A DNA stretch of 64,000 nucleotides from Lachnospiraceae bacterium. Its GTDB lineage: Bacteria > Bacillota > Clostridia > Lachnospirales > Lachnospiraceae. The stretch is from NCBI GenBank assembly GCA_017418645.1, contig JAFOND010000214.1, forward strand, positions 2,401 to 66,400. Direction: 5' to 3'. Below are positions 23,319 to 52,055 of this stretch, one piece after another (the first letter of the stretch is position 1; every line of letters begins with the position of its first letter). The position numbers and the translations under genes were made by a program. The notes beneath the pieces were generated by a model. It was given only the letters and a program-made list of their open reading frames with translations, had not been told where the DNA came from and made no database searches.

Positions 23319-24913
23319 CAAAAAAAGACCTCATAAAAAACCTCATACGCCCGACGGATATCGGCCTTGTCCTTGTCGTAACACTTATTTCGACAGGTCT
23401 TTCTTTGCTGCCCGCATACTTTGTCAAACTGCTTACCGGCGATGTCATCCTTAAAAACAGCGAAACGCTTCTTGTGGGCGTATTTGTTATGATGCTTTCC
23501 GCGGAAATCTTTTCGCAGCTCATGAAATCCTTAAAAAAGATTTTTTCCGGCCGTTTAGGTCTGCGCTCAGAGAAGTATATGGAAGAAAAAACAATGGAAA
23601 AGATGCTTTCCCTTCCCATATCTTTCTTCAGGCAGTTTCCGGCCGGAGAACTGTATCAAAGACAAAAGGCCGTCCCGGAACTTTATTCAGTAATAACCGG
23701 CGCCATAGTTCCGTTATGCATCGGAGTGTTTTCAGGAGTTGCTTTTTCCGTACAGATATCGGGGTTTACGCCGAAACTTTTACTTCCCGCCATTGTGATA
23801 ATAATTGCGACGGTTTTTGTATCTTTTTTAACATCCCTGAAAAAAGTTGATATCGGAAAAAGAGAAGTCCTTTTATCAGCAAAAGAAAACGCCATAAGCC
23901 TTGATATTATCCGGGGCGCATCAAAGATAAAGCATTCCGGTTCGGAGGATACCGCATTTAAAAAATGGGAGGAAGAGTATGACCGCGCCGCAAAACTAAA
24001 GTATGATCCGCCGTTTTTTATAAAAGTGTCCCCTGTTCTTTTTACAGTATTAAAGATCTTCGGCGGGATACTTATCTATTACATCGCGGCAAAGTACGAT
24101 ACGGAAGTATCCGACTACCTTGCTTTTAACACGGCATACGGCGGGCTTTTATCCGCATTTTCAACCCTTTCGGATACGGCTCTTTCCTTTGCGTCCGTTC
24201 CTCCCGTATTAAACCTTGCAAAACCGATCCTTGATGCGGTACCGGAGGATATGACGGGAAAGGAAGAAGTAAAAGAACTGTCCGGCAGGATAGAAGTAAA
24301 GAATCTTACTTTCGGATACGAAGAAGGGAAGGACGTCATAAAAAATCTGTCTTTTAGTATCGAACCCGGAGAATTTGTTTCGATAGAAGGGAAGACCGGC
24401 TGTGGAAAGACAACGCTTATCCGACTTCTCCTCGGACTGGAAAAGCCCCGGGAAGGACAGGTTTTATATGACGGGAAAGATATTGAAACACTTAATAAAA
24501 AAGAATTAAGAAAGAACATCGGAGCCGCAATCCAGGACGGACGGCTCTTTGCGGAGGATATTTTTACAAACATAACCATAGGAGACGAAAGCCTTACGGA
24601 AGAAGACGTCTGGGCTGCAGCGGAAATGTCTGAGATCAAAGACGAGATAAAAGATTTCCCCCTTCTTTTGGAAAACCAGATAAACGAGACGGGAACAAGC
24701 ATATCCGGCGGGCAGAAACAGCGCTTTCTTATTGCCCGGGCAGTTTGCAAAAAACCGAAGATCATAATATTTGACGAAGCCATGAGCGCCCTTGATGCCG
24801 GAATGCAGGAGGCGATCATAACAAACGTCCGAAAGACGGGGGCAACGCTGATCGTGGTTTCCCACCGCCCGGAAACCGTTGCGGGTGCGGATAAAAAGAT
24901 AAAGCTCCCTTAA
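23315..24913 (+). CDS. Second ABC transporter subunit (permease plus ATPase, NHLM bacteriocin-system type)
   Basis: TM domain, GKTGCGKT, ISGGQKQR, FDEAMSALD. Overlaps the upstream gene (ATGA). Confidence 0.9.
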   Translation: MTKKDLIKNLIRPTDIGLVLVVTLISTGLSLLPAYFVKLLTGDVILKNSETLLVGVFVMMLSAEIFSQLMKSLKKIFSGRLGLRSEKYMEEKTMEKMLSLPISFFRQFPAGELYQRQKAVPELYSVITGAIVPLCIGVFSGVAFSVQISGFTPKLLLPAIVIIIATVFVSFLTSLKKVDIGKREVLLSAKENAISLDIIRGASKIKHSGSEDTAFKKWEEEYDRAAKLKYDPPFFIKVSPVLFTVLKIFGGILIYYIAAKYDTEVSDYLAFNTAYGGLLSAFSTLSDTALSFASVPPVLNLAKPILDAVPEDMTGKEEVKELSGRIEVKNLTFGYEEGKDVIKNLSFSIEPGEFVSIEGKTGCGKTTLIRLLLGLEKPREGQVLYDGKDIETLNKKELRKNIGAAIQDGRLFAEDIFTNITIGDESLTEEDVWAAAEMSEIKDEIKDFPLLLENQINETGTSISGGQKQRFLIARAVCKKPKIIIFDEAMSALDAGMQEAIITNVRKTGATLIVVSHRPETVAGADKKIKLP

Positions 24914-24929
24914 TGAAGGGAGCTTTTTT
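24901..24929 (+). terminator. Rho-independent terminator
   Basis: AAAGCTCCCTT-AATG-AAGGGAGCTTT followed by a T run. Confidence 0.85.
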
Positions 24930-24933
24930 GTTT

Positions 24934-24966
24934 GTTGCGGTTTCGTTGCACTTTTTATTGTAAAAT
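24934..24966 (+). promoter_or_regulatory. Direct-repeat operator plus -10 element (copy 1)
   Basis: GTTGCGGTTTC-GTTGCACTTTTTATTG-TAAAAT, 27/33 identical to 32863-32895. Confidence 0.75.
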
Positions 24967-25017
24967 ACGTCCCAAATAGGGTATAATAACTCCGTATATA
25001 TTGATGTCGCCACGCGT

Positions 25018-25053
25018 TGTCATTTCGAGGAGCAAAGCGACGAAAAATCTTAA
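25018..25053. repeat. REP-like element (copy 2)
   Basis: 34/36 identical to 1007-1042. Confidence 0.7.
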
Positions 25054-25085
25054 CTATAAATATGAGTAAGTAAGGAGGACGCACT

Positions 25086-25418
25086 ATGAATATCGAAAGA
25101 TACCTTAAAGGGTTAAACGAAGACATAAAAGATGAGCTTCGCGCCTGCGATAATGTTGAGGAACTTCTTTCCGTTGCGCAGGAAAAAGGGCTTGAACTTC
25201 CGGACGAGGCGCTGGATGCGGTTTACGGCGGATGCGGCACAAGCTATACATACCAGATCGACGATTATCAGAGATGCAAGACCTGTTATAACAGAGTTGC
25301 TCTCCGTTCGGTAGGACATGACGGTTTTCCGGATGTATATTTCTGCCAGTTCTGCTTTACGACAAAGACGCCGACAGAGATCGAGAGATATTACAACAGG
25401 AGAAAAGTAGTTAAATAA
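25086..25418 (+). CDS. Nif11-like leader RiPP precursor peptide
   Basis: Leader ...EELLSVAQEKGLELPDEALDAVYGG (double-glycine) and a 61-aa Cys-rich core. Next to the C39 exporter and radical SAM. RBS AAGGAGG. Confidence 0.85.
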   Translation: MNIERYLKGLNEDIKDELRACDNVEELLSVAQEKGLELPDEALDAVYGGCGTSYTYQIDDYQRCKTCYNRVALRSVGHDGFPDVYFCQFCFTTKTPTEIERYYNRRKVVK

Positions 25419-25442
25419 GATCTTTTTAAAGGGGGATCCGCA

Positions 25443-28400
25443 ATGCATAATATTTTTAAAAAGAGTACAAAACGGATGATATCCGCAATGCTTGTTTTTG
25501 CAATGCTTGTGGGTTCTCTTTCTTATTGCGGAGATCTTTCTTCGTTCTCCGTTTTAGCGGCAATATCGGACAACACATATGATTCCACGGGAGCTGTCCT
25601 TGGGGATCTTGTTCGCGCGAACGTAAAAAATCACGGCATAGAAGATTACCAGTTTACAAATGATGAGGTCATTGCCGCCCTTAAGGCGGTGGGCGATGAG
25701 ATGCATGTCACGGGAGGATCGGACGAGGAATCCGGTCAGGTATATGATGACGACATTACTTCCGTTCCCATCTACAAGATAATCCAGGTGCTTTTTGAAA
25801 ATTATAACGAAGCAAAGAAAAAAGCTATCATAAAAGAAGCTGAGGAGATCAAGGCAGAAAACGAAAAAGCAAAGAAAGATTATGAAGAACAGAAGAAAAA
25901 GATAGAGGAAGAAAACGCTGAGGCTGACGAAGAAAATCAGAAGTCGCTTCCTGAAGAGCCTACATATAAAGAGGTTCCGGATGTCAACGCATACGTTGAT
26001 GTAACATATAATATCAAAAAGTCCGTGGGCTATTCCGGAGGCACTCTTGCAAACGCATACACATACCTTAATCTTATAACCGATTACGTCCGCGAAAAGG
26101 AACCTGCGGCACAGTCTTTGTATGACGATAAGATCGAGGCGATGATCACGGAAAGAGTTAAAACCGTTTCCACAAACATCAGCATGTCCGCAATAACGGA
26201 TGCGGTTAAACAGTATATCAAGGATCATACCACGGAACTTGTTAATTATAATGAGATGGAATATGTGGACTCTTTTACGAGCCCCCATACGGTAACGTTT
26301 TTCCAGTATACGCAGACACATTTCATCGATCCCGGAACACTTTTTATCGGAACATATCTTATTGACGCAAGTGCCATAAACGATGTGTATTATCGCTATG
26401 CCAAAGACAGCATGGGTATTATGTCACAGAATATCATGTATTATAAATCGGAACTCGACGGAGGAAACTGGAAAGATATTATCTCCGCAGCGGGTCTTTC
26501 CGATATTCTTCCCACGTCAACAACCGTTCCCAGTGCGGATCTTAATAAATATAAGATAACCTGCGTTGTTGGAAAGGACGGTATCCCAAGATATCCGGAT
26601 CTTCCGGCAACGGATCCCAATTCCGAATGCGATATCTTTACAATGACGGATCCCTATGATATGGCTGCGGTTCCTGAACTTGTAAAGCTTAAGCTTATGT
26701 TTGATGCCGGTGTCGTTTCCCAGAATACCGCCGATCTTTCGAACCGTTATACTGCGGACATTCTTTACCGTTTCTTTAACTATGACGGTTGCGGCGACAA
26801 TAAATCCATGATGATAATAAGAAACAGGGGCTACAGGGATTATGTATACGATCACCCGGAAGACGGAAAGACCATCGTTGGACAGAACCCCATCCCCATG
26901 TCGGAAAAGCTTCCCGCGGCTGCAAAGGATATAAAGAAGTTTACTTATATCACAAAGGAAGAGATCATGTATGTTACGGACCTTCAGGACAAGGCCCTTC
27001 ATCTTTCATGTAATATGGCACAGACTGTGGACCGTTATCAGGACCATCCGGATGCATGGATAGACCAGATCCTTTCCTGGATGGAATATTACGGTAACAG
27101 AAAATTCAATAATGTTAACGGCGGAAGACCCATAATCCTTCCCATAGAAGATATGGCAGATTCCCAGTGGGAGCGCCTGAATTTTAATCAAGATCCCCTT
27201 AATCCCCAGAGATTCATGTTCATTGTTAACGGTGTTCCCAGCACCGGAGACCAGAAGGAATTCATTAACCGCTGGATGTCGGATTCCGGTTTTCAGACCG
27301 GATCGACTCATTATGAAGACAGCAAAGGAAACAGGGTGGATAACCCCGGCGATGCGTACGGATTTGATAAATCCTGGTATGATCTTTATAAGAAAAATCC
27401 AATTGAAAAATTTAATGTATTTAAAGAGAACAACTATAGTAATGTAAAAGGTGACAACAAATATTATCTGATCGCTATGGGTGTTAATAGCGAAACGCGA
27501 TATGTTGCGGCAAAAGCGACCTATGATTATTTCAAAAACATAGAAAACGGCACATATAAAGAAGTTCCGGATACGTATTACTTAACTTATGATTATATCA
27601 ATGCCAATAAAGACAAGATGAATTTTGTTTTCTATGCACAGACGGGAGTATATGACGGCGGCCAGACCTTCAGCCTGAAGTTTGTTGAAGGTCAAAAGTG
27701 GAAGGATTTTAAGAATCTTATCTATCGTTATATGGACTGGCTTCGGAATATGTATGACATCCGTGATGACGTTACCTATACCTGTGACGATCATCTTAAG
27801 AACTTAAATGCGCTCTACAAGAAAGAAAGAAACGCCGGCAGGATCGACCAGGCAAATACTCTTATGGAACTTATGAGCCATGTGGATGCCACCCGCCGTG
27901 CGGAAATATATTATAACCTGGTATTCAATGAAGATAATAACGTTGTTCTCGGCCCCTCACTTATGTATGTCCTTGATCTTCTTATGGACGGAAAAGGAAA
28001 GGTGGGCCAGAACTATACCTTTATCTCCGGCGATACCGACGGTTCCTATGCATCAAACGATGCGATCCTTACGGCAGTTGAAGATGCCGTTGAAAACTGC
28101 CAGAAGAAATATTACGACTATGCGAGCATGTCCCTTTCGGATTCCGAAAATCTCTTGAAGGAGAAGGAATATGAATTATCTAACCTTATCCTTGCATCAA
28201 GAAACGATACGGACAGAAGCACATACCTGGACAGACTTGATTCTCTTTACAACATAATGGATATGGCCATCGTTGATAAAGACAGAGAAAAAACAATGAT
28301 AGACGAACTCCTTGAAGAGTCAGAGGAACGCTATGCGGAAAAGATCCATGACGTTGCAAGTGCGGATTATACGGAACTTGCATCAACTCCGGGAGTTACA

Positions 28401-29774
28401 AAGGCAACTCTCCGCGCAAGCCTTGAACTTCAAAAAGATGAGGCAAACACAAAGGTTTCGGAACTTCAGTTCCTTATAAGAGGATATGCATTAAGAAGCA
28501 ATATGTCCCAGGGTATCCTCTTCATAAACAGAAGACTTGACTGGGCACAGGCACAGGCTGCGGATATTCAGATGGAAGATCCCTTCGGCGCTTTTGCAAA
28601 GGAATCTCTTGATGAACACATAAAATGGCTGAAGGACATCTTGGCGAAGGTTAAGAACGGAACCCTTTCGGGAGACGATACGGAAGATGTGGATGCGGAT
28701 GCATATCTTCAGGGAGACCTTCTGGATGCACTTGATAATAACGACCTTGAACTTGCAACCAAGATCGGTGAAGAAGAAAGAGATCCGAATGCAGGCGGAA
28801 GCGGAACAGGTGACGACGGAAACGGCGGCGCCGGCGGCGGAGACGGAGACGGAGGACTTACTACCAGTACGAATCCGTTCCAGGAGCTTATCGATAAACT
28901 GGAAGAAAAGATACTTGACGATCCGGACGGCGCGAACCGGGATCCGAAACCGCTTATCGAAGCGTTGGGACAGCTGGGAGATGCGAACCTTCCGAATCTT
29001 AAGAACAGCCTCGTAGCAAGAGGCGTTGATGAGAGTATCATAAATGCCGTGGATGATGCCATAGAGAAATCAAAGAGTTCCAGCTATTATGACGGAACGG
29101 GAGATGACGGCTCCGGAAATAAGGATACAGGCAACGGACCGAGGCTTTCATACGACGATCTCTTAAAGCTTATTGAATCCCTGTTCGGAAAAGCTTTTGC
29201 GGATCTCGATGATGACGAAAAAGCAATCGTTGTTGCGGCTTGTACAAGATACGGAAACGACTACACGTATCCGGAGGTTTCCGAATTCGGACGCGGCGTT
29301 ATGTATCAGGCCCTTGACGAAAACAACGGATTCTTCTACAGACAGTTTACGGCGGATACCAGTGAGGAATATGTCAACCTTGCCGCTGTGGATAAGACAA
29401 GAAGACAATCCTGCTACAGATACGTTAAGCGAGGAAGAGAAGTAATCATGTCACAGATCAACCGTCCTTCCATGTCAGGAAGTTATGTATTTACGGTGGG
29501 ATCCAATATTGCATACAACAGATCCAAGAGATATATGGACCTTTCGAAGAATGTTGTACAGCAGACGGATGAATATGTACGCGGATCCCTTACAAGAAAC
29601 TATGCATATCTTGACGAGGGTGATGCGCAGAAACTTCTGGGTGTAACATGCCAGTACGTTCCGCAGAGCATATATGCGGTATACCTCTCCGGCGATATGG
29701 AGACAAAGGCGACGGCGTTCTATGAACTTATCGTTAAGACGGTTAATGAACTGGAAGCGAATTCTAAGAAGTAG
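25443..29774 (+). CDS. Giant exported protein (1443 aa), paralogue A
   Basis: Signal peptide. Shares blocks with the next gene (FIGTYLID, YKSELDGGNWKDI, DATRRAEIYYNL). Confidence 0.8.
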   Translation: MHNIFKKSTKRMISAMLVFAMLVGSLSYCGDLSSFSVLAAISDNTYDSTGAVLGDLVRANVKNHGIEDYQFTNDEVIAALKAVGDEMHVTGGSDEESGQVYDDDITSVPIYKIIQVLFENYNEAKKKAIIKEAEEIKAENEKAKKDYEEQKKKIEEENAEADEENQKSLPEEPTYKEVPDVNAYVDVTYNIKKSVGYSGGTLANAYTYLNLITDYVREKEPAAQSLYDDKIEAMITERVKTVSTNISMSAITDAVKQYIKDHTTELVNYNEMEYVDSFTSPHTVTFFQYTQTHFIDPGTLFIGTYLIDASAINDVYYRYAKDSMGIMSQNIMYYKSELDGGNWKDIISAAGLSDILPTSTTVPSADLNKYKITCVVGKDGIPRYPDLPATDPNSECDIFTMTDPYDMAAVPELVKLKLMFDAGVVSQNTADLSNRYTADILYRFFNYDGCGDNKSMMIIRNRGYRDYVYDHPEDGKTIVGQNPIPMSEKLPAAAKDIKKFTYITKEEIMYVTDLQDKALHLSCNMAQTVDRYQDHPDAWIDQILSWMEYYGNRKFNNVNGGRPIILPIEDMADSQWERLNFNQDPLNPQRFMFIVNGVPSTGDQKEFINRWMSDSGFQTGSTHYEDSKGNRVDNPGDAYGFDKSWYDLYKKNPIEKFNVFKENNYSNVKGDNKYYLIAMGVNSETRYVAAKATYDYFKNIENGTYKEVPDTYYLTYDYINANKDKMNFVFYAQTGVYDGGQTFSLKFVEGQKWKDFKNLIYRYMDWLRNMYDIRDDVTYTCDDHLKNLNALYKKERNAGRIDQANTLMELMSHVDATRRAEIYYNLVFNEDNNVVLGPSLMYVLDLLMDGKGKVGQNYTFISGDTDGSYASNDAILTAVEDAVENCQKKYYDYASMSLSDSENLLKEKEYELSNLILASRNDTDRSTYLDRLDSLYNIMDMAIVDKDREKTMIDELLEESEERYAEKIHDVASADYTELASTPGVTKATLRASLELQKDEANTKVSELQFLIRGYALRSNMSQGILFINRRLDWAQAQAADIQMEDPFGAFAKESLDEHIKWLKDILAKVKNGTLSGDDTEDVDADAYLQGDLLDALDNNDLELATKIGEEERDPNAGGSGTGDDGNGGAGGGDGDGGLTTSTNPFQELIDKLEEKILDDPDGANRDPKPLIEALGQLGDANLPNLKNSLVARGVDESIINAVDDAIEKSKSSSYYDGTGDDGSGNKDTGNGPRLSYDDLLKLIESLFGKAFADLDDDEKAIVVAACTRYGNDYTYPEVSEFGRGVMYQALDENNGFFYRQFTADTSEEYVNLAAVDKTRRQSCYRYVKRGREVIMSQINRPSMSGSYVFTVGSNIAYNRSKRYMDLSKNVVQQTDEYVRGSLTRNYAYLDEGDAQKLLGVTCQYVPQSIYAVYLSGDMETKATAFYELIVKTVNELEANSKK

Positions 29775-29796
29775 TGTCAAAAAAAGGGGAAGAGGA

Positions 29797-32700
29797 ATGA
29801 AGTATAAGAAGGGAAAAACAAATAAATACATTGCGGCGGCCCTTGCGGGTTCACTTCTCCTTGGTGTGCTTTCACCATACATAACACCTGCTTCTTCGGC
29901 GTACGCAAAAGGTTCCGGAGGAAGTTCCGGAAATACGACGCAGACCCCGGCAACGGAGAAAACGACCTCTTCCGAGGAAACTGTTTTAGACCTTGCCCAG
30001 GCGGACAAAGAGCGTTACGCTCCGGAAAAATTTCATAAATACGGAATAACCTATAAGGAATTCGTTAAAAAGAACGGCGAGCCGAGATATGCTCATATCC
30101 TTATAGGTACATATCTTATCGATCTTGTTCCCACGGAACAGATGATGAAAGACGGCGACGAGGCTCTTACGTCCGAGACTGCAGTCGCAGCAAAAACTTC
30201 AAAACTTACGTATCAGCAAAACGTTACATTCTATAAGAGCGAACTCGGAGACGGAACCTGGCGAGATATTGATCTCGCGGAAAGCCTTGATTCCATACGT
30301 CCGGGATCCGGCACAAGAGTAAGCGACTCCGAAATGGATAACATGCTTATCACGGTTTATGTTTCCGGCGGAAAGTCCAATTCCACATTGGATGAGGACG
30401 AAAACGGTGAAGATCCGTCAAGAAAGAATCCCTTCCTTGAACCCTCACCCTATAACCTTGACGAGATGCCGGAAATGGAAAACATCCTTAATATGTTATC
30501 AGACGGAAGTCTTCCCTATACGTCTGTTGCAGCGAGCAAGAGTCTTATCGCCGAAAACCAGTCCAATTATTTCCTTTCGGAAAGACTTCGTTATATGTTC
30601 GACCATGACGAGGTTACGGATACCATAAAGCTTCAGGACGGAGACGTTGAAAAGGCAAAGGCCGCAAGCGATGCCTTGAGGACCGGTTCCGGTGGAGAGA
30701 CCGCAAAAAAGATAGAAGAAGCCATCGATAACACTGAAGAAAGAGGCAGTCTTTATTTTTCAAACCTTACCACTTTAAAAGAAAATAAATCATTCACTCT
30801 CGGAGAGAACGGCACCGTTGCGGCAACCGAAAGACTTGCATACCATTTTTCCGATACAAGGGATGAACTTACGGATGTAATGGATAAGGCTGTCGTTAAT
30901 CTTTGGAAGATCTTCCTTGAATATAAGGATGCCGCAAAGGAAGCGGGAGAAGAGGAGGACTCTTTCGACAGACAGGATAATACCATTTATAACAAGGATA
31001 AATATTCTTTCATATATCAGCTCTGCGCAAATGCGGATGCAACAAGGCGCGGGGAGGCTTATTACAATCTTTCCGTAAACGATGAATTCCATGGATACAC
31101 GGGTTCTGTTCTTACAAACTTAAAGGCCATGAATACCAATGGCCAGTCATATATCGGAAGAAATATCCAGAACGCAAATTATTATCAGCCGCAGAAGGAA
31201 TATAACGCTATTGAAAAAGTGGGGAATGCGGTGTCGGGTCTCATAACCGGGGAAAAGAAAGAATCGAACTACGGAGGCTTTAAGTCCAACGAACAGCTGG
31301 CGGAAGAGATCCAGACCGCAACGGAAGCTGCCCAGGAGAAATATATAGGTTACGGCGAGTCCACTCTTTCCAGGGGAACTACCGCGGTTTCCATCCTTAT
31401 CTATGACAACGATCTTAAGATGTTCGAAAAGGAAAAGAAGGATGACGAGTTTGATACACTTGTTACGGAAACCATTTATGCAACCGCGATCCGGGATGAC
31501 GCGCCCAGATCAAAGCCGGCTGAAGCGGCGCTTATAAAAGATAAGCTTACGGGATCCCAGAATGAGATACTTCTTTCATATATAAAATCGGGAGTACCTG
31601 CGGAATATGCAAGCGCAACTTCCGATAACGAGAAGAAGAGTGTTCTTTTGGTACAGCAGCAGTCCGGAAAGAATGCCGAGAATGCGATGGAGAAACTTGT
31701 TAATTCCTATCTCGCAAGAGAAACCGTTAAAGATACATATTCTGCTTATCTTATATCACAGCTCAGATGGATCCGGGGAACAAAGGATTCCATCAAGGAT
31801 GACGTATATGAGAGTTATGCGGAAGAAATAAGATCCACGTATGAAACTTTCTTATTAAATAAGATGAGGGAACTGGGAATAGCGGATCCTGACGATCCCG
31901 GCGAAGGAGACCTTACCGATGATCCGTCGGATAAGCTTCCGAAGAACCTTGATCCGGACGATCCTTCTTATCAGCAGACTTTAGATGCTCTTCTTGATAA
32001 GTATATAAAGGAAGGCAATACGATTCCGGAAGGCTATCATGCGGAAGTGTCCATAGACCCGGCAACGGGAGCCGCATCCCTTAACTTTGTAAAGGACGAC
32101 AGGGACAGTGATTCCGGAAGTTCAAAGAACGATGCCGGAAGTACGGGCGGCGGAACCGAAGGCTCCGCGGGAACAAACAACGGACAGGGCGGCAAAGACG
32201 GTGTCGGATCGGGACTTCTTGTTCCCACAGGCAATATGCTGGATAATCTTTTGGCATTCCTTGGAAAGTCCTGGGACGAACTTAGTCCGGATCAGCAGGC
32301 GGAACTTGTATGCGCACTGAACCAGTACGGACGTGAAAATAAAAATGATGAAGCGGCGGAACTTGCAAGAACCCTTCTTGATAAGATAAAGGAACTTAAG
32401 AACCCGCTGGTTTATGCAAAATATAAAAACAATACCTATACGGAATATGTTTCTTTGGGATGTGCGGACCGCGCCAGACTGTATACAAAATTCCGATCCG
32501 TTAAGAAGAAGGGCACAACATCCCTTGCAACGGTTTCGATGCAGAAAACCGATGACGGTGTTGCATATGTTTATCAATACGGAAAAGCCAGGGTTAAAAA
32601 GACAGGCGGAAAGTGGGAGGATATTACGGCGGCTCCCGTATTCCAGAAAGATATATACTTAAATCGCGGCGAAGACACAAAGTTTATGTACATAAGCGAG

Positions 32701-32832
32701 GAAGATTCGCAGAATAAGCTTAAGTGCCGCGCGGAGTATATCGTTGATAAGCCGGATGCCATTCTGGTAACGTCCGCAATGGAACCGAACATCAAGAAAC
32801 TTGTGGACAAATTGAGGGACATGTACCCTTAA
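29797..32832 (+). CDS. Giant exported protein (~1011 aa), paralogue B
   Basis: Start at 29797 after a purine-rich RBS gives signal peptide MKYKKG...SSAYA. Blocks LIGTYLID, YKSELGDGTWRDI, DATRRGEAYYNL. Confidence 0.8.
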   Translation: MKYKKGKTNKYIAAALAGSLLLGVLSPYITPASSAYAKGSGGSSGNTTQTPATEKTTSSEETVLDLAQADKERYAPEKFHKYGITYKEFVKKNGEPRYAHILIGTYLIDLVPTEQMMKDGDEALTSETAVAAKTSKLTYQQNVTFYKSELGDGTWRDIDLAESLDSIRPGSGTRVSDSEMDNMLITVYVSGGKSNSTLDEDENGEDPSRKNPFLEPSPYNLDEMPEMENILNMLSDGSLPYTSVAASKSLIAENQSNYFLSERLRYMFDHDEVTDTIKLQDGDVEKAKAASDALRTGSGGETAKKIEEAIDNTEERGSLYFSNLTTLKENKSFTLGENGTVAATERLAYHFSDTRDELTDVMDKAVVNLWKIFLEYKDAAKEAGEEEDSFDRQDNTIYNKDKYSFIYQLCANADATRRGEAYYNLSVNDEFHGYTGSVLTNLKAMNTNGQSYIGRNIQNANYYQPQKEYNAIEKVGNAVSGLITGEKKESNYGGFKSNEQLAEEIQTATEAAQEKYIGYGESTLSRGTTAVSILIYDNDLKMFEKEKKDDEFDTLVTETIYATAIRDDAPRSKPAEAALIKDKLTGSQNEILLSYIKSGVPAEYASATSDNEKKSVLLVQQQSGKNAENAMEKLVNSYLARETVKDTYSAYLISQLRWIRGTKDSIKDDVYESYAEEIRSTYETFLLNKMRELGIADPDDPGEGDLTDDPSDKLPKNLDPDDPSYQQTLDALLDKYIKEGNTIPEGYHAEVSIDPATGAASLNFVKDDRDSDSGSSKNDAGSTGGGTEGSAGTNNGQGGKDGVGSGLLVPTGNMLDNLLAFLGKSWDELSPDQQAELVCALNQYGRENKNDEAAELARTLLDKIKELKNPLVYAKYKNNTYTEYVSLGCADRARLYTKFRSVKKKGTTSLATVSMQKTDDGVAYVYQYGKARVKKTGGKWEDITAAPVFQKDIYLNRGEDTKFMYISEEDSQNKLKCRAEYIVDKPDAILVTSAMEPNIKKLVDKLRDMYP

Positions 32833-32862
32833 AATAAAAAAAATAGTAAAAATATATAAATA

Positions 32863-32895
32863 GTTGCATACTTGTTGCACTTTTTATGGTAAAAT
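32863..32895 (+). promoter_or_regulatory. Direct-repeat operator plus -10 element of the CIS operon (copy 2)
   Basis: GTTGCATACTT-GTTGCACTTTTTATGG-TAAAAT, preceded by an A-rich tract. Confidence 0.75.
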
Positions 32896-32936: not shown

Positions 32937-33551
32937 ATGGCTGATTATACAATAATATCCGATGTCAGTAATTACATCCTCGGCCTCCTTCGACAAAGGA
33001 TGTGCCCGGAACCGATACCTTCACCGAACAACATCGAAGTATCGTCTCCGTCATCACAGGATGTAGACTATATCTTGGGGCTTTACCTCTACGATATTAA
33101 AGAGGAAGACACAGTAGCCCCGCCGCCCATGGTCCCGAGGGGCCGGGCGCAAATGGCACCGCCGCCCAAACCGTATAGCCTCTACTATATGGTTTTTGTA
33201 AATTCCGGAGGCCAGGCAGGGTTGAAGGATCAGGACTTTCAGAAGATCGTCGGGAAGGTAACACAGATTGTAAACGATCATCCGTCAGTTCTACCTACCC
33301 AACTGCAAAGCTGGCTGGACACGCAGGAACCGCCGATCGTGCTCTCTCAGGCAAAGATCGGTCTGGAAGAAAAAGTTCGGGTGTGGAGCGCGATCAACAA
33401 ACCTTATCAGATCTCACTCTTCTACAAGGCGGCACCCGTATTCGTATCCAGCGAGATTGTCATCAATACGCCTCGTGTTGTTGACGCACAGTTTGGTCTG
33501 CATGTGGCCGGCGAAAAACTTGAGGAGGAAGGAGGAGAAGGCAGTAAGTGA
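32937..33551 (+). CDS. DUF4255 / Pvc16-like CIS cap (tail terminator) protein
   Basis: LGLYLYDIKE, LYYMV and VWSAINKPYQISLFY...RVVD patterns; first gene before the sheath. Confidence 0.8.
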   Translation: MADYTIISDVSNYILGLLRQRMCPEPIPSPNNIEVSSPSSQDVDYILGLYLYDIKEEDTVAPPPMVPRGRAQMAPPPKPYSLYYMVFVNSGGQAGLKDQDFQKIVGKVTQIVNDHPSVLPTQLQSWLDTQEPPIVLSQAKIGLEEKVRVWSAINKPYQISLFYKAAPVFVSSEIVINTPRVVDAQFGLHVAGEKLEEEGGEGSK

Positions 33552-34294
33552 CAAAACAAGAAGGAGTCATCCAATGCACATTAGATCTTTTGATCAGATT
33601 GCAGGATACTACGACAGGGCTTCCCGTGGACGACCGAAGTGCCAAATTCATTTTTAACGGCGAAGAGTTCAGACCCACGGCCCGCGGATTCGGAAACTTT
33701 ATTCTGATAAACCACGGGAGAGTAAACGGAACGATGCAGGTTAAAGTATACGGATACGAACCCTACAGAGTTGAAGTTAACTACGAAGCACTTGACGAAA
33801 GACTCCCAGCAGTGGATGTGTTCCTGATACCGTCAGAGAATACCCGTTCCGGTCAGGAGATGCTTTCTTTATCCGGAACTTTGAAGGGAATTTCGTCACT
33901 GGAATGTATCCATCCGGGCAGACCCATTTCGGGTATCAGAGAGTTTGAACCGAAGAAAAAGGTGATGACGATCTACGCACCGAACAGAAGAATGAACATG
34001 ATACATTCTTACTACGGTCTGTACCACAGTGAAGAGGACACTTACGAGAGCATCGAAATTGTCGAACAGATTGAAAACAACAAGGTGCGACTCAGGGAAC
34101 CGCTTCACGATGAATTTACCGTAAACGCTCCGATATGCAGAAGGATATTCGGGCAGGTTTACCCAGACGGAAGGTACATCCTGAAAGTCAGGGACGACGG
34201 TAAAAGACAAAAATATCTGGTAAAATACGTTGTAGAAGGCGAGACCAGATATAAGAGCGTGGACTTCCGCGAAGACGGGGAGGTGACGCTGTAG
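33548..34294 (+). CDS. CIS-associated hypothetical protein
   Basis: Overlaps the cap gene; beta-rich, with a DTTTGLPV motif. Confidence 0.65.
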   Translation: MTKQEGVIQCTLDLLIRLQDTTTGLPVDDRSAKFIFNGEEFRPTARGFGNFILINHGRVNGTMQVKVYGYEPYRVEVNYEALDERLPAVDVFLIPSENTRSGQEMLSLSGTLKGISSLECIHPGRPISGIREFEPKKKVMTIYAPNRRMNMIHSYYGLYHSEEDTYESIEIVEQIENNKVRLREPLHDEFTVNAPICRRIFGQVYPDGRYILKVRDDGKRQKYLVKYVVEGETRYKSVDFREDGEVTL

Positions 34295-34318
34295 AAGTTT
34301 TAGGGGAAGGAATCTTAA

Positions 34319-34705
34319 ATGGCACTACTTGTAAACACGGGATCAACATTGTTCTGTACATTCGGAACAGCTACCACTCCTTTTAAGGCAACAAACAATC
34401 CCACCGTTCTGGTGGACGGAAAGCCGGCAGGGAGCATTGTGGACGGAGACGCCATCGTAAACATCACACCTTTCGGAATGTGTACAACTTTATCAAACCC
34501 GGCTGTTGCAGCAGCGACGGCTGCGGCTCTCGGAGTACTTACTCCGCAACCCTGTACACCACAGACGAAAGCCTGGACAACCGAAACGGCAACGGTGTTG
34601 ATAGGCGGAAAACCATGTTTGACCCAGGGATGTCAATGTATGTGTGCATACGGAGGGACAATATCCGTTACGGATTCCGCTCAAAAGACAGTGATCATAA
34701 CTTAG
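34319..34705 (+). CDS. DUF4280 PAAR-like spike-tip protein
   Basis: LFCTFG, NITPFGMC, PCTP...W and CMCAYGGTI motifs. Confidence 0.9.
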   Translation: MALLVNTGSTLFCTFGTATTPFKATNNPTVLVDGKPAGSIVDGDAIVNITPFGMCTTLSNPAVAAATAAALGVLTPQPCTPQTKAWTTETATVLIGGKPCLTQGCQCMCAYGGTISVTDSAQKTVIIT

Positions 34706-34744
34706 TGATCAAAAAAATATTTCTATAAGGAAGGAGATATGATT

Positions 34745-36511
34745 ATGGCTGAATATTTTAGCCCCGGAGTATATGTGGAAGAGATAGATAACTCTCCGCG
34801 TAACGTTGAAGGAGTCGGCACAAGTACCGCTGGTTTCGTAGGTCTTGCAGAAAAAGGCCCGGCGGGCGGCGCTCCGGTTCTCGTTACAAACTTCAAGAGC
34901 TTTTTAGGACAGTTCGGAGGATTCCTCTCCGAATATACACATGGCGAGTATCGCTATCTTGCCAACAGTGTTGAGCAGTTCTTCAATAACGGTGGAACAC
35001 GTTGCTACATCGCACGTGTAGTACCGGAAGACGCAAAGGTTGCTTCAAAGAAGATGGGCATCCTTGATGTTTCCGCAGCTAACGAAGGTAAGTGGGGAAA
35101 CAGAGTACAGGTTTCTTTAAAGTCCGTTAGCAAGCGTCGTATGCAGCTTGTATCAAAGGACGGAGATACCGTTTACACAGCTAAGTCTGTAGAAGGCTTC
35201 AGAGAAGGCGATATCGTTGAATTCAACGGCGAGTACAACCGCATAGAGATGATCTATGACAAGCAGGTTACATTCACCGGCAAGTTCAAGGGAAATCCTG
35301 TTGACGAAGGTGTTATTCCGAAGACGGTCATCACACTTGTAACATTTGATGTTCAGGTTCGTTACAATGACCAGATCGAGAACTTCTTCGATGTAACATT
35401 AAACGATCAGGCTCCGACATATATCAAGTCACGTCTTGCTAAGTCAAACCTTATCAAGGTTGAAGCAGGCGCAGTTAAGGATACAACTGTTAAGGGCGAA
35501 AAGGGAGAGGCTCCGGCTACGGTTATCGCTAACCCGGTTGAAGCAATCCTCGGCAAGGGAATTACGGAAGGAACATTCTCACTTGAGGGCGGTTCCGACG
35601 GTTCCATCAAGAGCGTTAATGCCGGCACATTCATCGGCGTTGATGACGGCCCCTCCGGACGTACAGGTATCCAGGCGTTCCTTGAGAACGACAATGTTAG
35701 CATCATGGCAGTTCCGGGCGTAACAATTCCGGAAGTAGCAGTAGCACTCGTTGCTCATTGCGAGAATCAGAAGAACCGTTTTGCAGTTCTTGATATGCCG
35801 CATGATGCAGTTAAGGTTGAAGACCTTACAGACTATCGCGGAATCATCGACAGCACATACGCTGCAATGTATCATCCGTGGATCAAGGTTTTCGATCGTG
35901 GATCAAACCAGACAGCAGATATCCCGCCTTCAGGCGCAGTTATCGGTATCTATTCACGTACAGATCAGACTCGCGGCGTTCATAAGGCACCGGCTAACGA
36001 GACAGTATTCTGTAACGGACTTTCCGTTAACTACACGAAGGCAGAGCAGGATCTCCTCAATCCCGAAGGAATCAACCTTATCAGGAACATCCCGGGCGAA
36101 GGAATCCGCGTATGGGGCGCTCGTACAGCTTCCTCGAATGCAGCTTTCCGCTATGTCAACATCAGAAGACTCTTCATCTATGTTATGGAATCCATCAAGG
36201 CTTCCACAAACTGGGTGGTATTCGAGCCCAACGATGCTACACTTTGGCAGAGAGTTAACCTTACGATCTCCTCATTCCTTGAGAGTATGTGGAGAACAGG
36301 CATGCTTGCAGGAAATTCCGCAGGCGAGGCTTATTTCGTAGAAATCGGCCCCGGAACAACGATGACAATGGACGATATCCGTGCCGGCAGACTTATCTGC
36401 AATATCGGTATCGCACCGAGCCGTCCGGCAGAGTTCGTAATCTTCAGACTGTCCCAGTATACAGCTGATGCAGGCGCTGAAGGTGGCGGCGGAGAAGCAA
36501 GCGAGAGCTAA
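34745..36511 (+). CDS. Contractile tail sheath protein
   Basis: SPGVYVEE, FFNNGG, YHPW, GVHKAPAN, LNPEGIN, VWGART, YVNIRR, FEPND and PAEFVIFR motifs. Confidence 0.96.
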   Translation: MAEYFSPGVYVEEIDNSPRNVEGVGTSTAGFVGLAEKGPAGGAPVLVTNFKSFLGQFGGFLSEYTHGEYRYLANSVEQFFNNGGTRCYIARVVPEDAKVASKKMGILDVSAANEGKWGNRVQVSLKSVSKRRMQLVSKDGDTVYTAKSVEGFREGDIVEFNGEYNRIEMIYDKQVTFTGKFKGNPVDEGVIPKTVITLVTFDVQVRYNDQIENFFDVTLNDQAPTYIKSRLAKSNLIKVEAGAVKDTTVKGEKGEAPATVIANPVEAILGKGITEGTFSLEGGSDGSIKSVNAGTFIGVDDGPSGRTGIQAFLENDNVSIMAVPGVTIPEVAVALVAHCENQKNRFAVLDMPHDAVKVEDLTDYRGIIDSTYAAMYHPWIKVFDRGSNQTADIPPSGAVIGIYSRTDQTRGVHKAPANETVFCNGLSVNYTKAEQDLLNPEGINLIRNIPGEGIRVWGARTASSNAAFRYVNIRRLFIYVMESIKASTNWVVFEPNDATLWQRVNLTISSFLESMWRTGMLAGNSAGEAYFVEIGPGTTMTMDDIRAGRLICNIGIAPSRPAEFVIFRLSQYTADAGAEGGGGEASES

Positions 36512-36530
36512 GGAAAGGAGGAACACATAG

Positions 36531-37037
36531 ATGGCAGAGACAGCTTATGAGAACAGCAACGGCTTATCATATCCGTTGACTAAAATGAACTTCCGTGTTT
36601 CCGTTGACGGTGTTGACGGCGCGGCAGCCTTTAACCAGGTAACCGGTCTTGATGCACAGATCGACGTGATCGAGTTCAGACAGGGAAATGCGAATTCACT
36701 TTCCCCGGTTAAGATCCCCGGTCTTGTGAAGCACGGAAATGTTACTCTTCGTTTTGGATATACTCTTAACAATGCGTTTAAGACATGGATCCAGGAATGT
36801 GTATCCGAGCGTCGCGGCCCGATCCCCAGAAACAATGTTCTGATCGAGCTCATCGACATTAACGGCGGTGCTCCCCAGACAACATCCGATGCTGTTTCAA
36901 CAGCGGATGCAAGGGTATGGCAGCTTACAAACGCTTGGGTTGCTCATTACACAGGTCCCGAACTTGATGCGGCAAATTCAGACGTAGCTCTTGAATCTGT
37001 TGAAATCGCGTTCGAAGAAATGGTAATCCCGAACTAG
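36531..37037 (+). CDS. T4 gp19-like inner tube protein (Afp1-like)
   Basis: FRVSVDG, FNQVTGL, IEFRQG, KIPGLVKHGNVTL, WQLTNAW and ESVEIAFE motifs. Confidence 0.93.
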   Translation: MAETAYENSNGLSYPLTKMNFRVSVDGVDGAAAFNQVTGLDAQIDVIEFRQGNANSLSPVKIPGLVKHGNVTLRFGYTLNNAFKTWIQECVSERRGPIPRNNVLIELIDINGGAPQTTSDAVSTADARVWQLTNAWVAHYTGPELDAANSDVALESVEIAFEEMVIPN

Positions 37038-37127
37038 GCCGAAGCGCAAGGCGCGAAGGTCGTTCTCCGAACGAAGAGAGGAGAACATCCCGCGAGGGCT
37101 TTATACTTACCGGATACGCAAAAAGGC

Positions 37128-37190
37128 GTATCCGGTAGTGTAATATATTCTTGAAGAGAGTATATTACACTGCCGGATACATATTTTTTT
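37128..37190 (+). terminator. Long hairpin plus U tract (terminator/attenuator), with a competing stem at 37108-37137
   Basis: 37128-37147 pairs with 37161-37180 (one G-U pair), followed by ATATTTTTTT. Confidence 0.7.
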
Positions 37191-37207
37191 AAAAGGAGAA
37201 GCAGAAA

Positions 37208-37570
37208 ATGGAAACAATATTCGAATTCGATCTTCCGAAAGGCTATGTGGATAACAGTGGGGAGATCCACCGCCACGGAAAGATGAGACTTGCAACGGCG
37301 GGAGATGAGATGAACGCGCAGCGTGACCCGCGTGTGCTTTCGAATCCGTCCTACCTCACAATAGTATTACTCGCATCCGTTATAACGGAGATCGAGGGCG
37401 TAAACATTATCGCACCCGCAACGATAGAAAAACTTTTTACGGCGGATCTTGCATTCCTTCAGGATATGTACCAGAGAATAAACGACATCGAGCCGCCGAC
37501 AATGCGTTATGTATGTCCGGATTGCGGAAAGGAGCATACAATCCCCATAAATTTTACAAGAGAGGGATAA
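37208..37570 (+). CDS. Tail assembly chaperone (gpG-like)
   Basis: FDLPKGYVD...GKMRLATAGDE...DPRV...LFTADLAFLQDMYQRIN...CPDCG. Confidence 0.8.
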   Translation: METIFEFDLPKGYVDNSGEIHRHGKMRLATAGDEMNAQRDPRVLSNPSYLTIVLLASVITEIEGVNIIAPATIEKLFTADLAFLQDMYQRINDIEPPTMRYVCPDCGKEHTIPINFTREG

Positions 37571-37776
37571 CGCTCTATCCACAGGACGAGATGTATAGAG
37601 AGATGGCATTTATCTCGTATTACTTCCACTGGCCGGAGCATGAAGTGCTAAGTCTGGATCATGCAACAAGGCGAAGGTGGTGCAGGGAGATATCATCAAT
37701 CAATTCGAGCCTTACTCCCTCTGAAACAAGGAAGGAAAAAAGTATTCTGGAGATGAGTCCATCTCCGAAATGGTAA
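37550..37776 (+). CDS. DUF6760-like small protein (gpT-like), possibly reached by -1 frameshift
   Basis: LYPQDEMYREMAFISYYFHWPEHEVLSLDHATRRRWCREISSIN. No good start codon before the conserved region; it lies in the -1 frame behind the slippery heptamer AAATTTT (37549-37555). Confidence 0.7.
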
Positions 37777-37788
37777 GAGGTAAACGAT

Positions 37789-38985
37789 ATGGCAGGAAAA
37801 TATGAAGTTTTACCAAATTTTCGGTTTGTCCTTCGAGTAGAAGCGGCATTCGATGTTCCGCTCAAGTCTATACGACCGTTTACAAAAGAAAACGAGTTCG
37901 AACAGATAGAAGAAGGCGGGCTTAACGACTATGTCCACATCAAAAGAAAACATTGCACAAGACCGCACACCATTCAGGTGGAAAGATATCTCACGGAGGA
38001 TTTTTACGATCCCATTCCCAACGGCACCTCTTTTGCGCTGCCGCTTCTGCTGTTTGTAGGCGGAAACAACGGCCAGGAGTTTTCATGGGCGCCGAGAAGA
38101 ACCTATTGCTTCTTCGGAGCACAGGTTATGAACAAAGAGATCGGCGGATTTGATGCGGAAAAGAGCGGCCTCTTAACGGAAACCGTTACCATCGCTTATC
38201 ATCAGCTTTATATGATGGATACGCCGGTAGATCTTGAGGACGAAACATGGAGCATCAAGTCCTCAACCGGAACGGGCGCAAATATCGAAAATCTTTATGC
38301 ATACAAAGATGTTACCGTACCGGCACAGAACAAAATCGAAAAAAAAGATTTTGTCGCAAAGGCTGCCGAGAGAACCTGGCATTTCGGAGAATCCGCAGAT
38401 GACTTCGAAGGAAACGGAGTTCGTTACAGCGGCTCACCGGAGAAGAACATCAAGAAGAATACAAGAACAAGGAAGGATCTCGAAACTGCGGCAAAAGCAA
38501 ATACCTGGCATTTTGCGAAGGATCCGAAGAATTATCTCGGAAACGGAATCACCCATTCGCGTTCTGAGGTTGTGGAAGATCCGAAGGCAAGGCCGTATTA
38601 CAACGAATCTTCCGGAAAGTCTTCCGTAGGAACCACAAAGCTCGAACTTTCAATGAAGAAAGCAGAAAGAAATACATGGCATTTCGGACCCAGCAAGGAA
38701 GACTTCCTCGGAAACAAGAAGATACATGCAAACAAACTTCCGGAAGCGGAAGGTCAGAGAACCGATATCGACGAGAAGTCACTTGCAATAAAGAAAGCGG
38801 AAGAAAATACATGGCGCTTTGCGGATAACAGCAAGAATTACACCGGAAACGGCAAGATGCATGCGAAGCATATAAACGGCGAAAAGAGCGTTACCGAACT
38901 TGAGGCAGCGGCAGCCGAAAAGAGATGGCCGAACGCATCATATGCGCTTAAACTTCCAAAAACTCCTCCGGAAAGTCAGGAATAG
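37789..38985 (+). CDS. Second tube-like protein (Afp5-like) with C-terminal repeat extension
   Basis: FRFVLRVE, EEGGLNDYVH and ETVTIAY tube motifs, then four TW(H/R)F...GN repeats. Confidence 0.75.
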   Translation: MAGKYEVLPNFRFVLRVEAAFDVPLKSIRPFTKENEFEQIEEGGLNDYVHIKRKHCTRPHTIQVERYLTEDFYDPIPNGTSFALPLLLFVGGNNGQEFSWAPRRTYCFFGAQVMNKEIGGFDAEKSGLLTETVTIAYHQLYMMDTPVDLEDETWSIKSSTGTGANIENLYAYKDVTVPAQNKIEKKDFVAKAAERTWHFGESADDFEGNGVRYSGSPEKNIKKNTRTRKDLETAAKANTWHFAKDPKNYLGNGITHSRSEVVEDPKARPYYNESSGKSSVGTTKLELSMKKAERNTWHFGPSKEDFLGNKKIHANKLPEAEGQRTDIDEKSLAIKKAEENTWRFADNSKNYTGNGKMHAKHINGEKSVTELEAAAAEKRWPNASYALKLPKTPPESQE

Positions 38986-39011
38986 GATTAAGATTTAAAG
39001 AGTAGATAAAT

Positions 39012-41006: not shown

Positions 41007-41009
41007 TAT

Positions 41010-41939
41010 ATGGCTATAAGTGAAGCAGGTAATACCGCAATCGGAACCGCCGCAATGGCCGGTTTTGAAGCAGCTTATAAGGGAGTACATCTTGCACTTC
41101 CCAAGGCTCAGCTTTATGTTCCGAAAACCTACAGCTTAAATGCTATGGGAGCAATGACTGCGGCAATAGGAAAAAACGATTCGGCGATCCTATCTGCCCT
41201 CTCAAAGAAGAAGAGGTCAAATTCCAGGGCTGCAACGGCAACGGACGGATTCTTTAAGAGAGGTGTAAAGCAGGCTCTTGGATCCATGCCGGTCGTAAGT
41301 CTTGCCATGGCTGCAAACTTAAAGGGCGCGGCTACAATGGAAGGCCTTTCGGAAAAGAATTATTCCGTTATGGAGGTTCAGTACAATCCGAAGAGCATCC
41401 AGATTTCTTCAAACGGCGGTGGAATGCTCCGTCCCCCTGCGGCGGGAGATGCGAGCGCGTATCAGATGCAGATCACATCAAACGTCATGAGAACAAACTT
41501 CTCCGTCGAACTTGTATTTGAAGATATCAACATTGCGGATGCCTTCCATCTTGAAGGTCTTTCGATGAATGCGGAAGAACTTGCACAGACGGCATTGTCT
41601 ACGGCGGTCAATACCATTGGAGACGGTTTTTCAATTCAGAAACAGTGCGAAGGTCTTTTATCGCTTCTTAACTTTAAGAGATTAAAACAGGTAATATTTA
41701 TGTGGTCGGATATGTTCTTCCACGGAGAACTTACAAGCGTCCGGGTTAGCTACGAAATGTTCAATAAACTGGGAAATCCGGTTCTTGCAAAGGTACAGCT
41801 GGAAATACAGCAGAACGACTCTTCCGGCGGTATCAGATATGTATCGGATGATGATCAGTGGAATACAGCTTTCGACATTGCCTTCGGCGATGCAACACTG
41901 GGAGCGGCCGCTACAAAGATGGGCGGATTCGGAGCATAG
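41010..41939 (+). CDS. CIS tube-initiator (Afp7-like) protein 1, no LysM
   Basis: VQYNPKSI and FMWSDMFFHGELTSVRVSYEMFNKLGNPVLAKVQL motifs. Confidence 0.75.
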   Translation: MAISEAGNTAIGTAAMAGFEAAYKGVHLALPKAQLYVPKTYSLNAMGAMTAAIGKNDSAILSALSKKKRSNSRAATATDGFFKRGVKQALGSMPVVSLAMAANLKGAATMEGLSEKNYSVMEVQYNPKSIQISSNGGGMLRPPAAGDASAYQMQITSNVMRTNFSVELVFEDINIADAFHLEGLSMNAEELAQTALSTAVNTIGDGFSIQKQCEGLLSLLNFKRLKQVIFMWSDMFFHGELTSVRVSYEMFNKLGNPVLAKVQLEIQQNDSSGGIRYVSDDDQWNTAFDIAFGDATLGAAATKMGGFGA

Positions 41940-41957
41940 GATTAAAGGAGATATCAT

Positions 41958-42860: not shown

Positions 42861-42865
42861 TATAT

Positions 42866-44035: not shown

Positions 44036-44044
44036 GGAGAGATT

Positions 44045-44878: not shown

Positions 44879-44897
44879 GGAAAGGGAAGAGAAAACT

Positions 44898-48450: not shown

Positions 48451-48469
48451 CCACGGATGAGGTGTTAAT

Positions 48470-50569: not shown

Positions 50570-50580
50570 GGTAAAAAATT

Positions 50581-51678: not shown

Positions 51679-51695
51679 AGAGGACGATACTTCAA

Positions 51696-51995: not shown

Positions 51996-52055
51996 TTTTT
52001 TGGCTTTTTTGAACTTTATTCGACCGGATATTTAATGCATTAGGGGGAAAATGTT

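Follow-up and report, generated by a model that had tools for sequence, protein, structure and literature searches.

Class II activation by regulators of the PhoB/OmpR family is exemplified by the pho box and by the spa-box of SpaR. Streptomyces antibiotic regulatory proteins (SARPs), which are mainly actinomycete proteins, act at promoters with direct repeats spaced by 11 or 22 bp, of which the 3' one lies 8 bp from the -10 element; the afs box is centred at -29.5 (PMC10936776). What turns on extracellular contractile injection systems is poorly understood, and cargo encoded away from the machine is difficult to predict. Geller et al. 2021 described BTAD as a 'shell' domain of such loci and proposed RfaH-like (AnfA1), GerE/LuxR and BTAD genes as regulators from neighbourhood association, with no operators; Lachnospiraceae are not mentioned there (PMC8213781). 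We analysed a 64,000-nucleotide stretch (the window) of contig JAFOND010000214.1, which belongs to a rumen Lachnospiraceae genome (G000), a metagenomic assembly of 2.25 Mb that is 84% complete. In the window, one copy of a 33-bp element (copy 1) precedes an operon encoding the precursor of a ribosomally synthesised and post-translationally modified peptide (RiPP) and two giant proteins, and another (copy 2) precedes the operon of a contractile injection system (Table 1). We propose that the two copies are probably activator-dependent sigma-A promoters and the operator of a regulon, and that P0001, a small winged-helix protein encoded in the window, is the most likely activator. As in the loci of Geller et al. 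2021, a transcription factor gene lies beside the injection system; unlike there, an operator and a dispersed regulon were derived.

The two 33-mers, at positions 24934-24966 and 32863-32895, are both on the forward strand and are identical at 27 of 33 positions (counted by eye), including 21 of the last 22 bases; GTTGC is repeated in each with an 11-bp period. When the 22-base core was sought with up to three mismatches, only these two places were found in the window (0.00 expected, 100 shuffles). No TTGACA-like hexamer was found 16-18 bp upstream of the TAAAAT of either copy. Copy 2 has an extended -10 element of the TRTGn type (TATGG at 32885-32889) and a predicted transcription start at about 32902, 35 nt upstream of the ATG at 32937; in copy 1 the TG is shifted by one base and the start is predicted at about 24973. 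The original prediction for this DNA had given the positions of the two copies, their identities, the 11-bp period and the lack of a canonical -35 element, and had pointed to a TTGTAA-N18-TATAAT pair overlapping copy 1; all of these proved correct. The overlapping pair is a possible second basal promoter. The same overlap with a TATAAT is seen at a box site on contig C155 and at the box preceding the precursor gene in the related genome G043, and is missing at the injection-system copy. No Rfam family was detected in the whole window, and nothing supported an RNA element in the leader of copy 1, whose 113 nt fold no better than their shuffles (z 0.46).

The exact pattern GTTGC-N6-GTTGC occurs seven times in the genome. 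All seven occurrences are intergenic and co-oriented with the next gene, which begins 7-175 nt further downstream, and all have TAnnnT, which was no part of the search pattern, exactly 11 nt past the second GTTGC. They fit the form TTGTTGCA-N3-TTGTTGCA-N10-TAnAAT, with a usable -35 box at none of them. A weight matrix trained solely on 157 sites of other genomes gave the seven sites 31-41 bits (38 bits for copy 1 and 37.5 bits for copy 2); the next matches reached at most 18 bits and represent a different box type. Chance or mere local duplication was rejected as the origin of the two copies on the strength of the seven sites in the genome, the foreign-trained matrix and the conservation across genomes.

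The anatomy of the box was established from 41 sites of six genomes, tallying positions free of the search pattern. The T before repeat 1 (T0) and the sixth base A of this repeat (A6) are each present in 35 of the 41 sites, the TT just before repeat 2 (T10, T11) in 36 for either position and the sixth base A of repeat 2 (A17) in 34. Upstream of the -10 element, the T-R-T-G is conserved to varying degrees (T23 and R24 in 32/41, T25 in 29/41, G26 in 20/41), the interior adenines of the TAtAAT hexamer are found in 32/41 and 34/41, and the distance from the end of the second heptamer or hexamer to the -10 is 9-10 bp in all 41 sites. The features expected of a sigma-A extended -10 promoter, TAnAAT and TRTGn with no usable -35, were thereby found, and the box unit reads as TTGTTGCAnnn, present twice and followed by a putative Gram-positive extended -10. 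One site of G043 (contig C66, L117) carries three GTTGCA units with the 11-bp period.

Five of the seven sites lie outside the window. One (L003:824-2138, contig C196) precedes an operon that starts with a 116-aa stand-alone receiver-like protein, in which a by-eye alignment found the acidic pocket, the acceptor aspartate and the conserved Thr and Lys seemingly missing. The product of the second gene of this operon is a two-helix membrane protein in which a coiled coil and a HATPase_c domain, and no HisKA, are recognisable; the remaining genes encode two acyltransferases and a SpoIIE-type PP2C phosphatase. Another site precedes the gene of a second AAA ATPase, 35% identical to the Afp15-like ATPase of the locus (E 1e-72), followed by two unknown proteins. 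A further site precedes the gene of a 429-aa protein that the ESM Atlas groups with the double-GNAT proteins of the locus, a grouping that serves as a lead only; its BLAST match to the GNAT proteins of the locus was not significant (E 0.19). The remaining two sites precede the genes of a 607-aa unknown protein and of a signal-peptide protein. As the assembly is fragmented, this list of the regulon is incomplete.

The box and P0001 occur together across genomes. Of 40 relatives within the genus, family and order, 37 lack the pattern and none exceeds one copy. In the three genomes whose injection systems are closest (sheath 88-94% identical), 5, 6 and 14 exact copies were counted; reversed-pattern controls gave 0-1 copies. 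It is exactly these three that have a full-length P0001 orthologue (63-73% identical), and the genomes of the same genus lack one, their best matches being full-length response regulators of 36-48% identity. A search of 185,579 species genomes with the P0001 protein led to two further genomes, in which box copies were counted afterwards and numbered 8 and 2; in these genomes, chosen by protein first, the box was present as predicted. Three genomes with 78%-identical injection systems and no P0001 orthologue have 0-1 copies, as do all 43 genomes without an orthologue.

The box also stands before orthologous genes in the related genomes. It precedes orthologues of the precursor gene (G042, G043), a giant protein gene with a copy of its own (G043), the orthologue of injection-system gene 1 (G041), the pseudo-receiver operon (G041, G043, G044), orthologues of the secreted-protein gene (two in G042, and in G043, G044 and G045) and genes of the 429-aa family (G042, two in G043). 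P0001 is always the first gene of the same operon, which leads to the RiPP cassette. In G044 (contig C169:1-12000, L155) the order is box, pseudo-receiver gene, kinase-like gene, 239-aa gene and then the P0001 orthologue with its operon, which would give P0001 positive feedback on itself. Separately, we observed that the atypical pairing of pseudo-receiver and kinase-like protein is kept in the regulon of four genomes.

P0001 consists of a receiver stub of about 50 residues (VLIVNDD...) followed by 134 residues that were modelled with a predicted local distance difference test score (pLDDT) of 91.9. The model shows an OmpR-type winged helix and three short BTAD-like helices (~45 residues). The best Foldseek matches, over the whole length of the model, are AfsR (8hvr, 8k60) and EmbR, with template modelling (TM) scores of 0.70-0.75; PhoB-type DNA-binding domains match its first 86 columns only (TM 0.54). 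Because a profile of the full-length family recovered only receiver domains from the PDB, the C-terminal part was searched alone, and EmbR (E 0.011) and AfsR (E 0.014) ranked ahead of OmpR-family domains, the EmbR sequence alignment extending to the first BTAD helix only. The OmpR-type winged helix is seen in the weak PF00486 match, in the strands and three helices of the model and in the Foldseek matches. Pfam detected neither BTAD (PF03704) nor Response_reg in P0001. With no more than three short helices behind the winged helix and no BTAD found by Pfam, P0001 is, by its model, best described as SARP-like rather than as a full SARP. It belongs to a widespread clostridial family of response regulators and has lost the receiver domain.

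This family adjoins the box well beyond the Lachnospiraceae. A scan of the 185,579 species genomes with the 20-base pattern TGTTGCA-N3-TTGTTGCA-N10-TAnAAT returned at least 118 stretches, where about one is expected at equal base frequencies; they came from Ruminococcus, Oscillospiraceae, Acutalibacteraceae, Acholeplasmatales, Christensenellaceae, [Eubacterium] saphenum and others. Among the 118 matches listed, 32 have a P0001-family gene within 8 kb (about 1% by chance, a rough estimate); in 19 the box lies 11-230 nt past the stop codon of such a gene on the same strand, in two just upstream of it and in one divergently. The box-adjacent homologues are full receiver-plus-winged-helix response regulators, and the recognition helix they share, S(N/Y)LR(N/S/T)(L/M)I.D(L/M)K, resembles that of P0001, SYLRSMISDLKK. 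In the homologues of P0001, Trans_reg_C scores 16-25 bits.

Three winged-helix paralogues are encoded in the genome: P0001, P0002 and a full-length receiver/winged-helix protein on contig C155 (17093-17917). The recognition helices of P0002 (KSFDVVISSLKS) and of the C155 regulator (KYFDTVIRSLKD) are of a different type, (K/Q)(S/Y)FD..I. A second box type, G-N-TGGAC-N4-G-N-TGGAC-N9-TATAAT, was found at 62989-63021 in the window and at C77(-)7803, C134(+)8674, C120(-)3747 and C155(-)9460 (G000). In the window and in G001 it lies directly 3' of a P0002-like winged-helix/GNAT gene, and on C155 it precedes the gene of a 1808-aa giant protein; the box at 62989-63021 is probably the site of P0002-type paralogues. 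On the minus strand of C155 at ~19290, TTGTAGGAC occurs twice with an 11-bp period before TAGTAT (a GTAGGAC-type core), upstream of the operon that contains the C155 paralogue. This suggests three paralogue/operator pairs in one genome. Because P0002 and the C155 regulator adjoin TGGAC and GTAGGAC boxes and differ in the recognition helix, we assign the GTTGCA box to P0001 as its putative binder. Six canonical OmpR-family regulators that score above the Pfam cut-off in the genome were considered as binders and set aside; the recurrence of the box is tied to genomes with P0001 orthologues.

The promoters of the injection system itself vary between loci. Most of 56 related loci have, upstream of injection-system gene 1, a gene resembling that of the second giant protein (giant2); the C-terminal giant2 match ends at most 150 nt from the start of gene 1 in 16 of the 56, and most of the other, more distant loci leave no gap before gene 1. 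In three close relatives (G042, G045 and G001), gene 1 directly adjoins the giant2-like gene, and no promoter separates the two. Accordingly, the GTTGCA promoter between giant2 and the injection machine appears to have been added locally to an operon that is otherwise continuous. On contig C16 of G043 (L285), GATGGAC-N4-GTTAGAC-N9-TATAGT, a box of the TGGAC type, lies ~80 nt before the Pvc16_N gene; the injection machine of G043 has apparently moved between paralogous regulators. Injection systems with 78-82% identical proteins carry yet another conserved box, TGTGAAAATTT-TGTGCCC-N18-TATAAT, found at L018, L019, L021 and L037 ~150 nt before the Pvc16_N gene. Of three such genomes searched, two lack a P0001-family gene, and a 34% match is all that the third contains.

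These results bear on the remaining claims of the original prediction. Its proposal of one regulon gains support from the seven sites in the genome and from the box before orthologous genes in five related genomes. The genome-wide scan that it had suggested did uncover dispersed genes, among them the second Afp15-like ATPase, a GNAT-like partner and cargo-like proteins. It had also envisaged an OmpR/SARP winged-helix activator on direct repeats over the -35 region, with which the SARP-like P0001 gene heading the locus, the family adjoining the box and a geometry that fits the SARP rule are consistent. The view that the modules form one system stands in part: co-regulation is supported, while the synteny of giant2 and gene 1 is stronger evidence for it than the box, which had been named the best.

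The box, its distribution within the genome and across genomes, its linkage to a regulator family and the modelled fold of the regulator are shown by the analysis, and from them we infer binding, activation, a start site and a binding paralogue as follows. Each copy would present a TAnAAT -10 element, often TRTGn-extended, with two 11-bp TTGTTGCAnnn units in place of the -35; with a start 7 nt past the hexamer, the units would span about -41 to -20. Two SARP-like winged-helix protomers, most likely of P0001, would bind the units head to tail along the same face of the helix, and the bound protein would bring in RNA polymerase in the manner of AfsR at the afs box and of PhoB at the pho boxes. 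The predicted regulon would comprise the operon of the RiPP precursor and giant proteins, the injection-system operon, the operon of the second Afp15-like ATPase, the pseudo-receiver/kinase/PP2C operon, the secreted protein and cargo-like genes.

The closest counterparts are the SARP promoters (the afs box of AfsR/afsS and the targets of ActII-ORF4, DnrI and RedD), in which 11-bp repeats likewise replace or overlap the -35 and the 3' repeat is 8-10 bp from the -10; with a period of 11 bp and 9-10 bp to the -10, the sites described here fit the SARP rule within one or two bases. The combination of an OmpR-type winged helix with BTAD-type helices is also shared, as is the position of a cluster-situated regulator at the head of a natural-product locus, here of a RiPP. 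In contrast to SARPs, the host is a Firmicute, the winged helix of P0001 is followed by ~45 residues instead of a BTAD of ~150 residues, and the relatives of P0001 are response regulators with an N-terminal receiver. The repeat, moreover, is TTGTTGCA and not TCGAG-like, and the -10 is a canonical AT-rich extended element. Class II promoters of the PhoB/OmpR family (pho box) share two 11-bp units ~10 bp before the -10, the lack of a -35 and tandem head-to-tail binding, which is a prediction here. Members of the P0001 family carry a receiver as PhoB/OmpR proteins do; P0001 differs in lacking it and in a Trans_reg_C score below the cut-off.

Several points weigh against P0001 acting as activator of one regulon at these boxes. 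Its PF00486 (Trans_reg_C) match, with E 1.2e-4 and 22.5 bits, falls below the Pfam cut-off of 26.2, it has no receiver domain with a phospho-acceptor aspartate, and its sequence matches to SARPs are weak. Co-occurrence cannot separate P0001 from P0002 or the pseudo-receiver/kinase pair, which are co-inherited, and the six box-bearing Lachnospiraceae genomes are kin, so that their agreement weighs less than that of six independent genomes would. The link between injection system and box is, on the sequences compared, evolutionarily labile, because G043 has a TGGAC-type box there and G042, G045 and G001 have no promoter of gene 1's own. With 84% of the genome recovered, the assembly might miss a full-length paralogue that shares the helix of P0001. 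The box might accordingly be the operator of the regulator family with a binder other than P0001, be it such an unassembled paralogue, P0002 or the C155 regulator, and P0001 might be a competitor or have another target. That three paralogues are present, and that the box-adjacent regulators of other Firmicutes are all full-length response regulators, speaks for a different binder. We nonetheless hold it to be unlikely: it is the helix of P0001 that resembles those of the box-adjacent regulators, the other two paralogues differ in helix and adjoin boxes of their own types, full-length P0001 orthologues track the box in five genomes, and a box-driven operon runs into P0001 in G044.

The overlapping TTGTAA-N18-TATAAT pair could also be the working promoter at copy 1, the repeats then lying ~21 bp further upstream in a class I-type position or idle, and the two copies being alike partly through recent duplication. 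Its 10/12 match to the consensus and the downstream TATAAT at the C155 and G043 precursor sites are in keeping with this, and the spacers of copies 1 and 2 and of the C155 site are more alike than function seems to need. We consider this arrangement quite improbable, as the second hexamer is missing at the injection-system copy and at most other sites, the G042 precursor site leaves just 28 nt from box to start codon, the element common to all sites is the TAnAAT 11 nt past repeat 2, and spacers vary freely between genomes. It is more improbable still, to the point that we rejected it, that sigma-54 or an alternative sigma factor reads the GTTGCA elements without an activator. The sigma-54 element TGGCA-N6-TTGCA differs from TTGCA-N6-TTGCA by a single base, and a partner-switching set (STAS, SpoIIE PP2C and the kinase-like protein) lies within the regulon. 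Against such a reader stand the sigma-A TAtAAT and TRTG at a fixed distance in all sites, none of which sigma-54 needs, the -24 GG that is never present, and a spacing of 10 or 21 bp from repeat to -10, which fits no known -35/-10 pair; no sigma gene was found beside the boxes, and the 32 of 118 listed matches mentioned above have a winged-helix gene nearby. LytTR-type (AgrA/ComE) sites, in which 9-bp repeats lie ~21 bp apart, were rejected since the period here is 11 bp. Activation by P0001 at the GTTGCA units is the reading that we retain.

The gene order of the window was taken from Pfam annotation of its open reading frames (Table 1). Behind P0001 lie genes for five unknown or membrane proteins, for a radical-SAM/SPASM enzyme and for two ABC proteins, the first of them a C39-peptidase exporter; a strong intrinsic terminator closes this ABC-transporter operon directly 5' of copy 1. 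The radical-SAM/SPASM and C39-ABC genes sit 5' of the Nif11-like precursor gene. No Pfam family was found in the two giant proteins. The operon behind copy 2 encodes Pvc16_N, DUF4280, sheath, tube and baseplate (gp25, J, VgrG-like) proteins and an Afp15-like AAA ATPase, and Pfam found no capsid or terminase family among the open reading frames scanned in the window; this content matches that of an Afp/PVC-like extracellular contractile injection system, to which we assign the operon from its predicted proteins. Downstream, GNAT-like genes alternate with unknown proteins up to P0002.

Table 1. Location of the main features in the window (position 1 is the first letter of the window).
Feature	Position	Strand	Remarks
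P0001, candidate activator, 184 aa	12200..12754	+	weak Trans_reg_C match
Intrinsic terminator	24901..24926	+	11-pair stem with 5 GC pairs, then T run
Box copy 1	24932..24966	+	GTTGCG 24934-24939, GTTGCA 24945-24950, -10 TAAAAT 24961-24966
Sigma-70-like pair TTGTAA-N18-TATAAT overlapping copy 1	24958..24987	+	10/12 consensus match
Nif11-like precursor, 110 aa, double-glycine leader	25086..25418	+	from translation; first gene behind copy 1
Two giant proteins, 1443 and 1052 aa	25443..32832	+	open reading frames; in copy 1 operon
Box copy 2	32861..32895	+	GTTGCA 32863-32868 and 32874-32879, -10 TAAAAT 32890-32895
Contractile injection system operon behind copy 2	32937..54605	+	Pfam hits
P0002, winged helix fused to GNAT domain, P0001 paralogue	61847..62950	+	different recognition helix
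Variant box GGTGGAC-N4-GTTGGAC-N9-TATAAT	62989..63021	+	same geometry as GTTGCA box

A defined operator, a candidate activator and a short list of dispersed operons sharing the operator turn membership of the system into a testable list. We put forward tentatively, as a possibility on the doubtful side, that rumen Lachnospiraceae have a lifestyle module built on the injection system, with the RiPP as a functional part, and that the master switch of this module is a 'mini-SARP' lacking the receiver. Were this true, one operator would switch on the injection machine together with a radical-SAM RiPP and two giant surface proteins, and also a spare ATPase for loading and cargo operons dispersed in the genome; the RiPP could for example be a signal or a co-weapon of the injection system, and a scan for the operator would offer a general way to list injection-system cargo from sequence only. 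The GTTGCA box would then be the code of a large, unstudied clostridial family of response regulators with SARP-like output domains. SARP-type activation would also be extended, as a prediction, to widespread response regulators of gut and rumen Firmicutes, which adjoin RiPP, surface-protein and partner-switching genes.

Elsewhere the GTTGCA operator drives many kinds of genes and is not specific to injection systems, whose genes were found, among the stretches examined, only in those of this Lachnospiraceae lineage. In several Ruminococcus genomes, tblastn placed the box before genes of Nif11-like precursors, of C39-ABC exporters and of a radical-SAM enzyme; the RiPP cassette may be where box and regulator first belonged. 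A Pfam tally of 91 genes downstream of the box in the Firmicutes matches listed gave BspA-type leucine-rich repeat surface proteins and receiver-domain proteins (5 each), clostripain-like peptidases, STAS and GNAT proteins (3 each), and SpoIIE phosphatases and VanX-like peptidases (2 each). Literature on TTGTTGCA repeats was searched and nothing relevant was found. Box-driven RiPP genes with no injection-system genes nearby were seen at L170, L174, L190, L234, L243, L178 and L168 (Ruminococcus, Clostridia), and the box-preceded radical-SAM enzyme of this set is 49% identical to that of the window. In Acholeplasmatales and 'Bacillales' (L191, L196, L198, L201, L204, L209, L215, L258), the box precedes, sometimes twice per contig, genes of a protein family of 340-850 aa whose N-termini are similar (…LLKKLG…Y…NP…K…AL.YI…).

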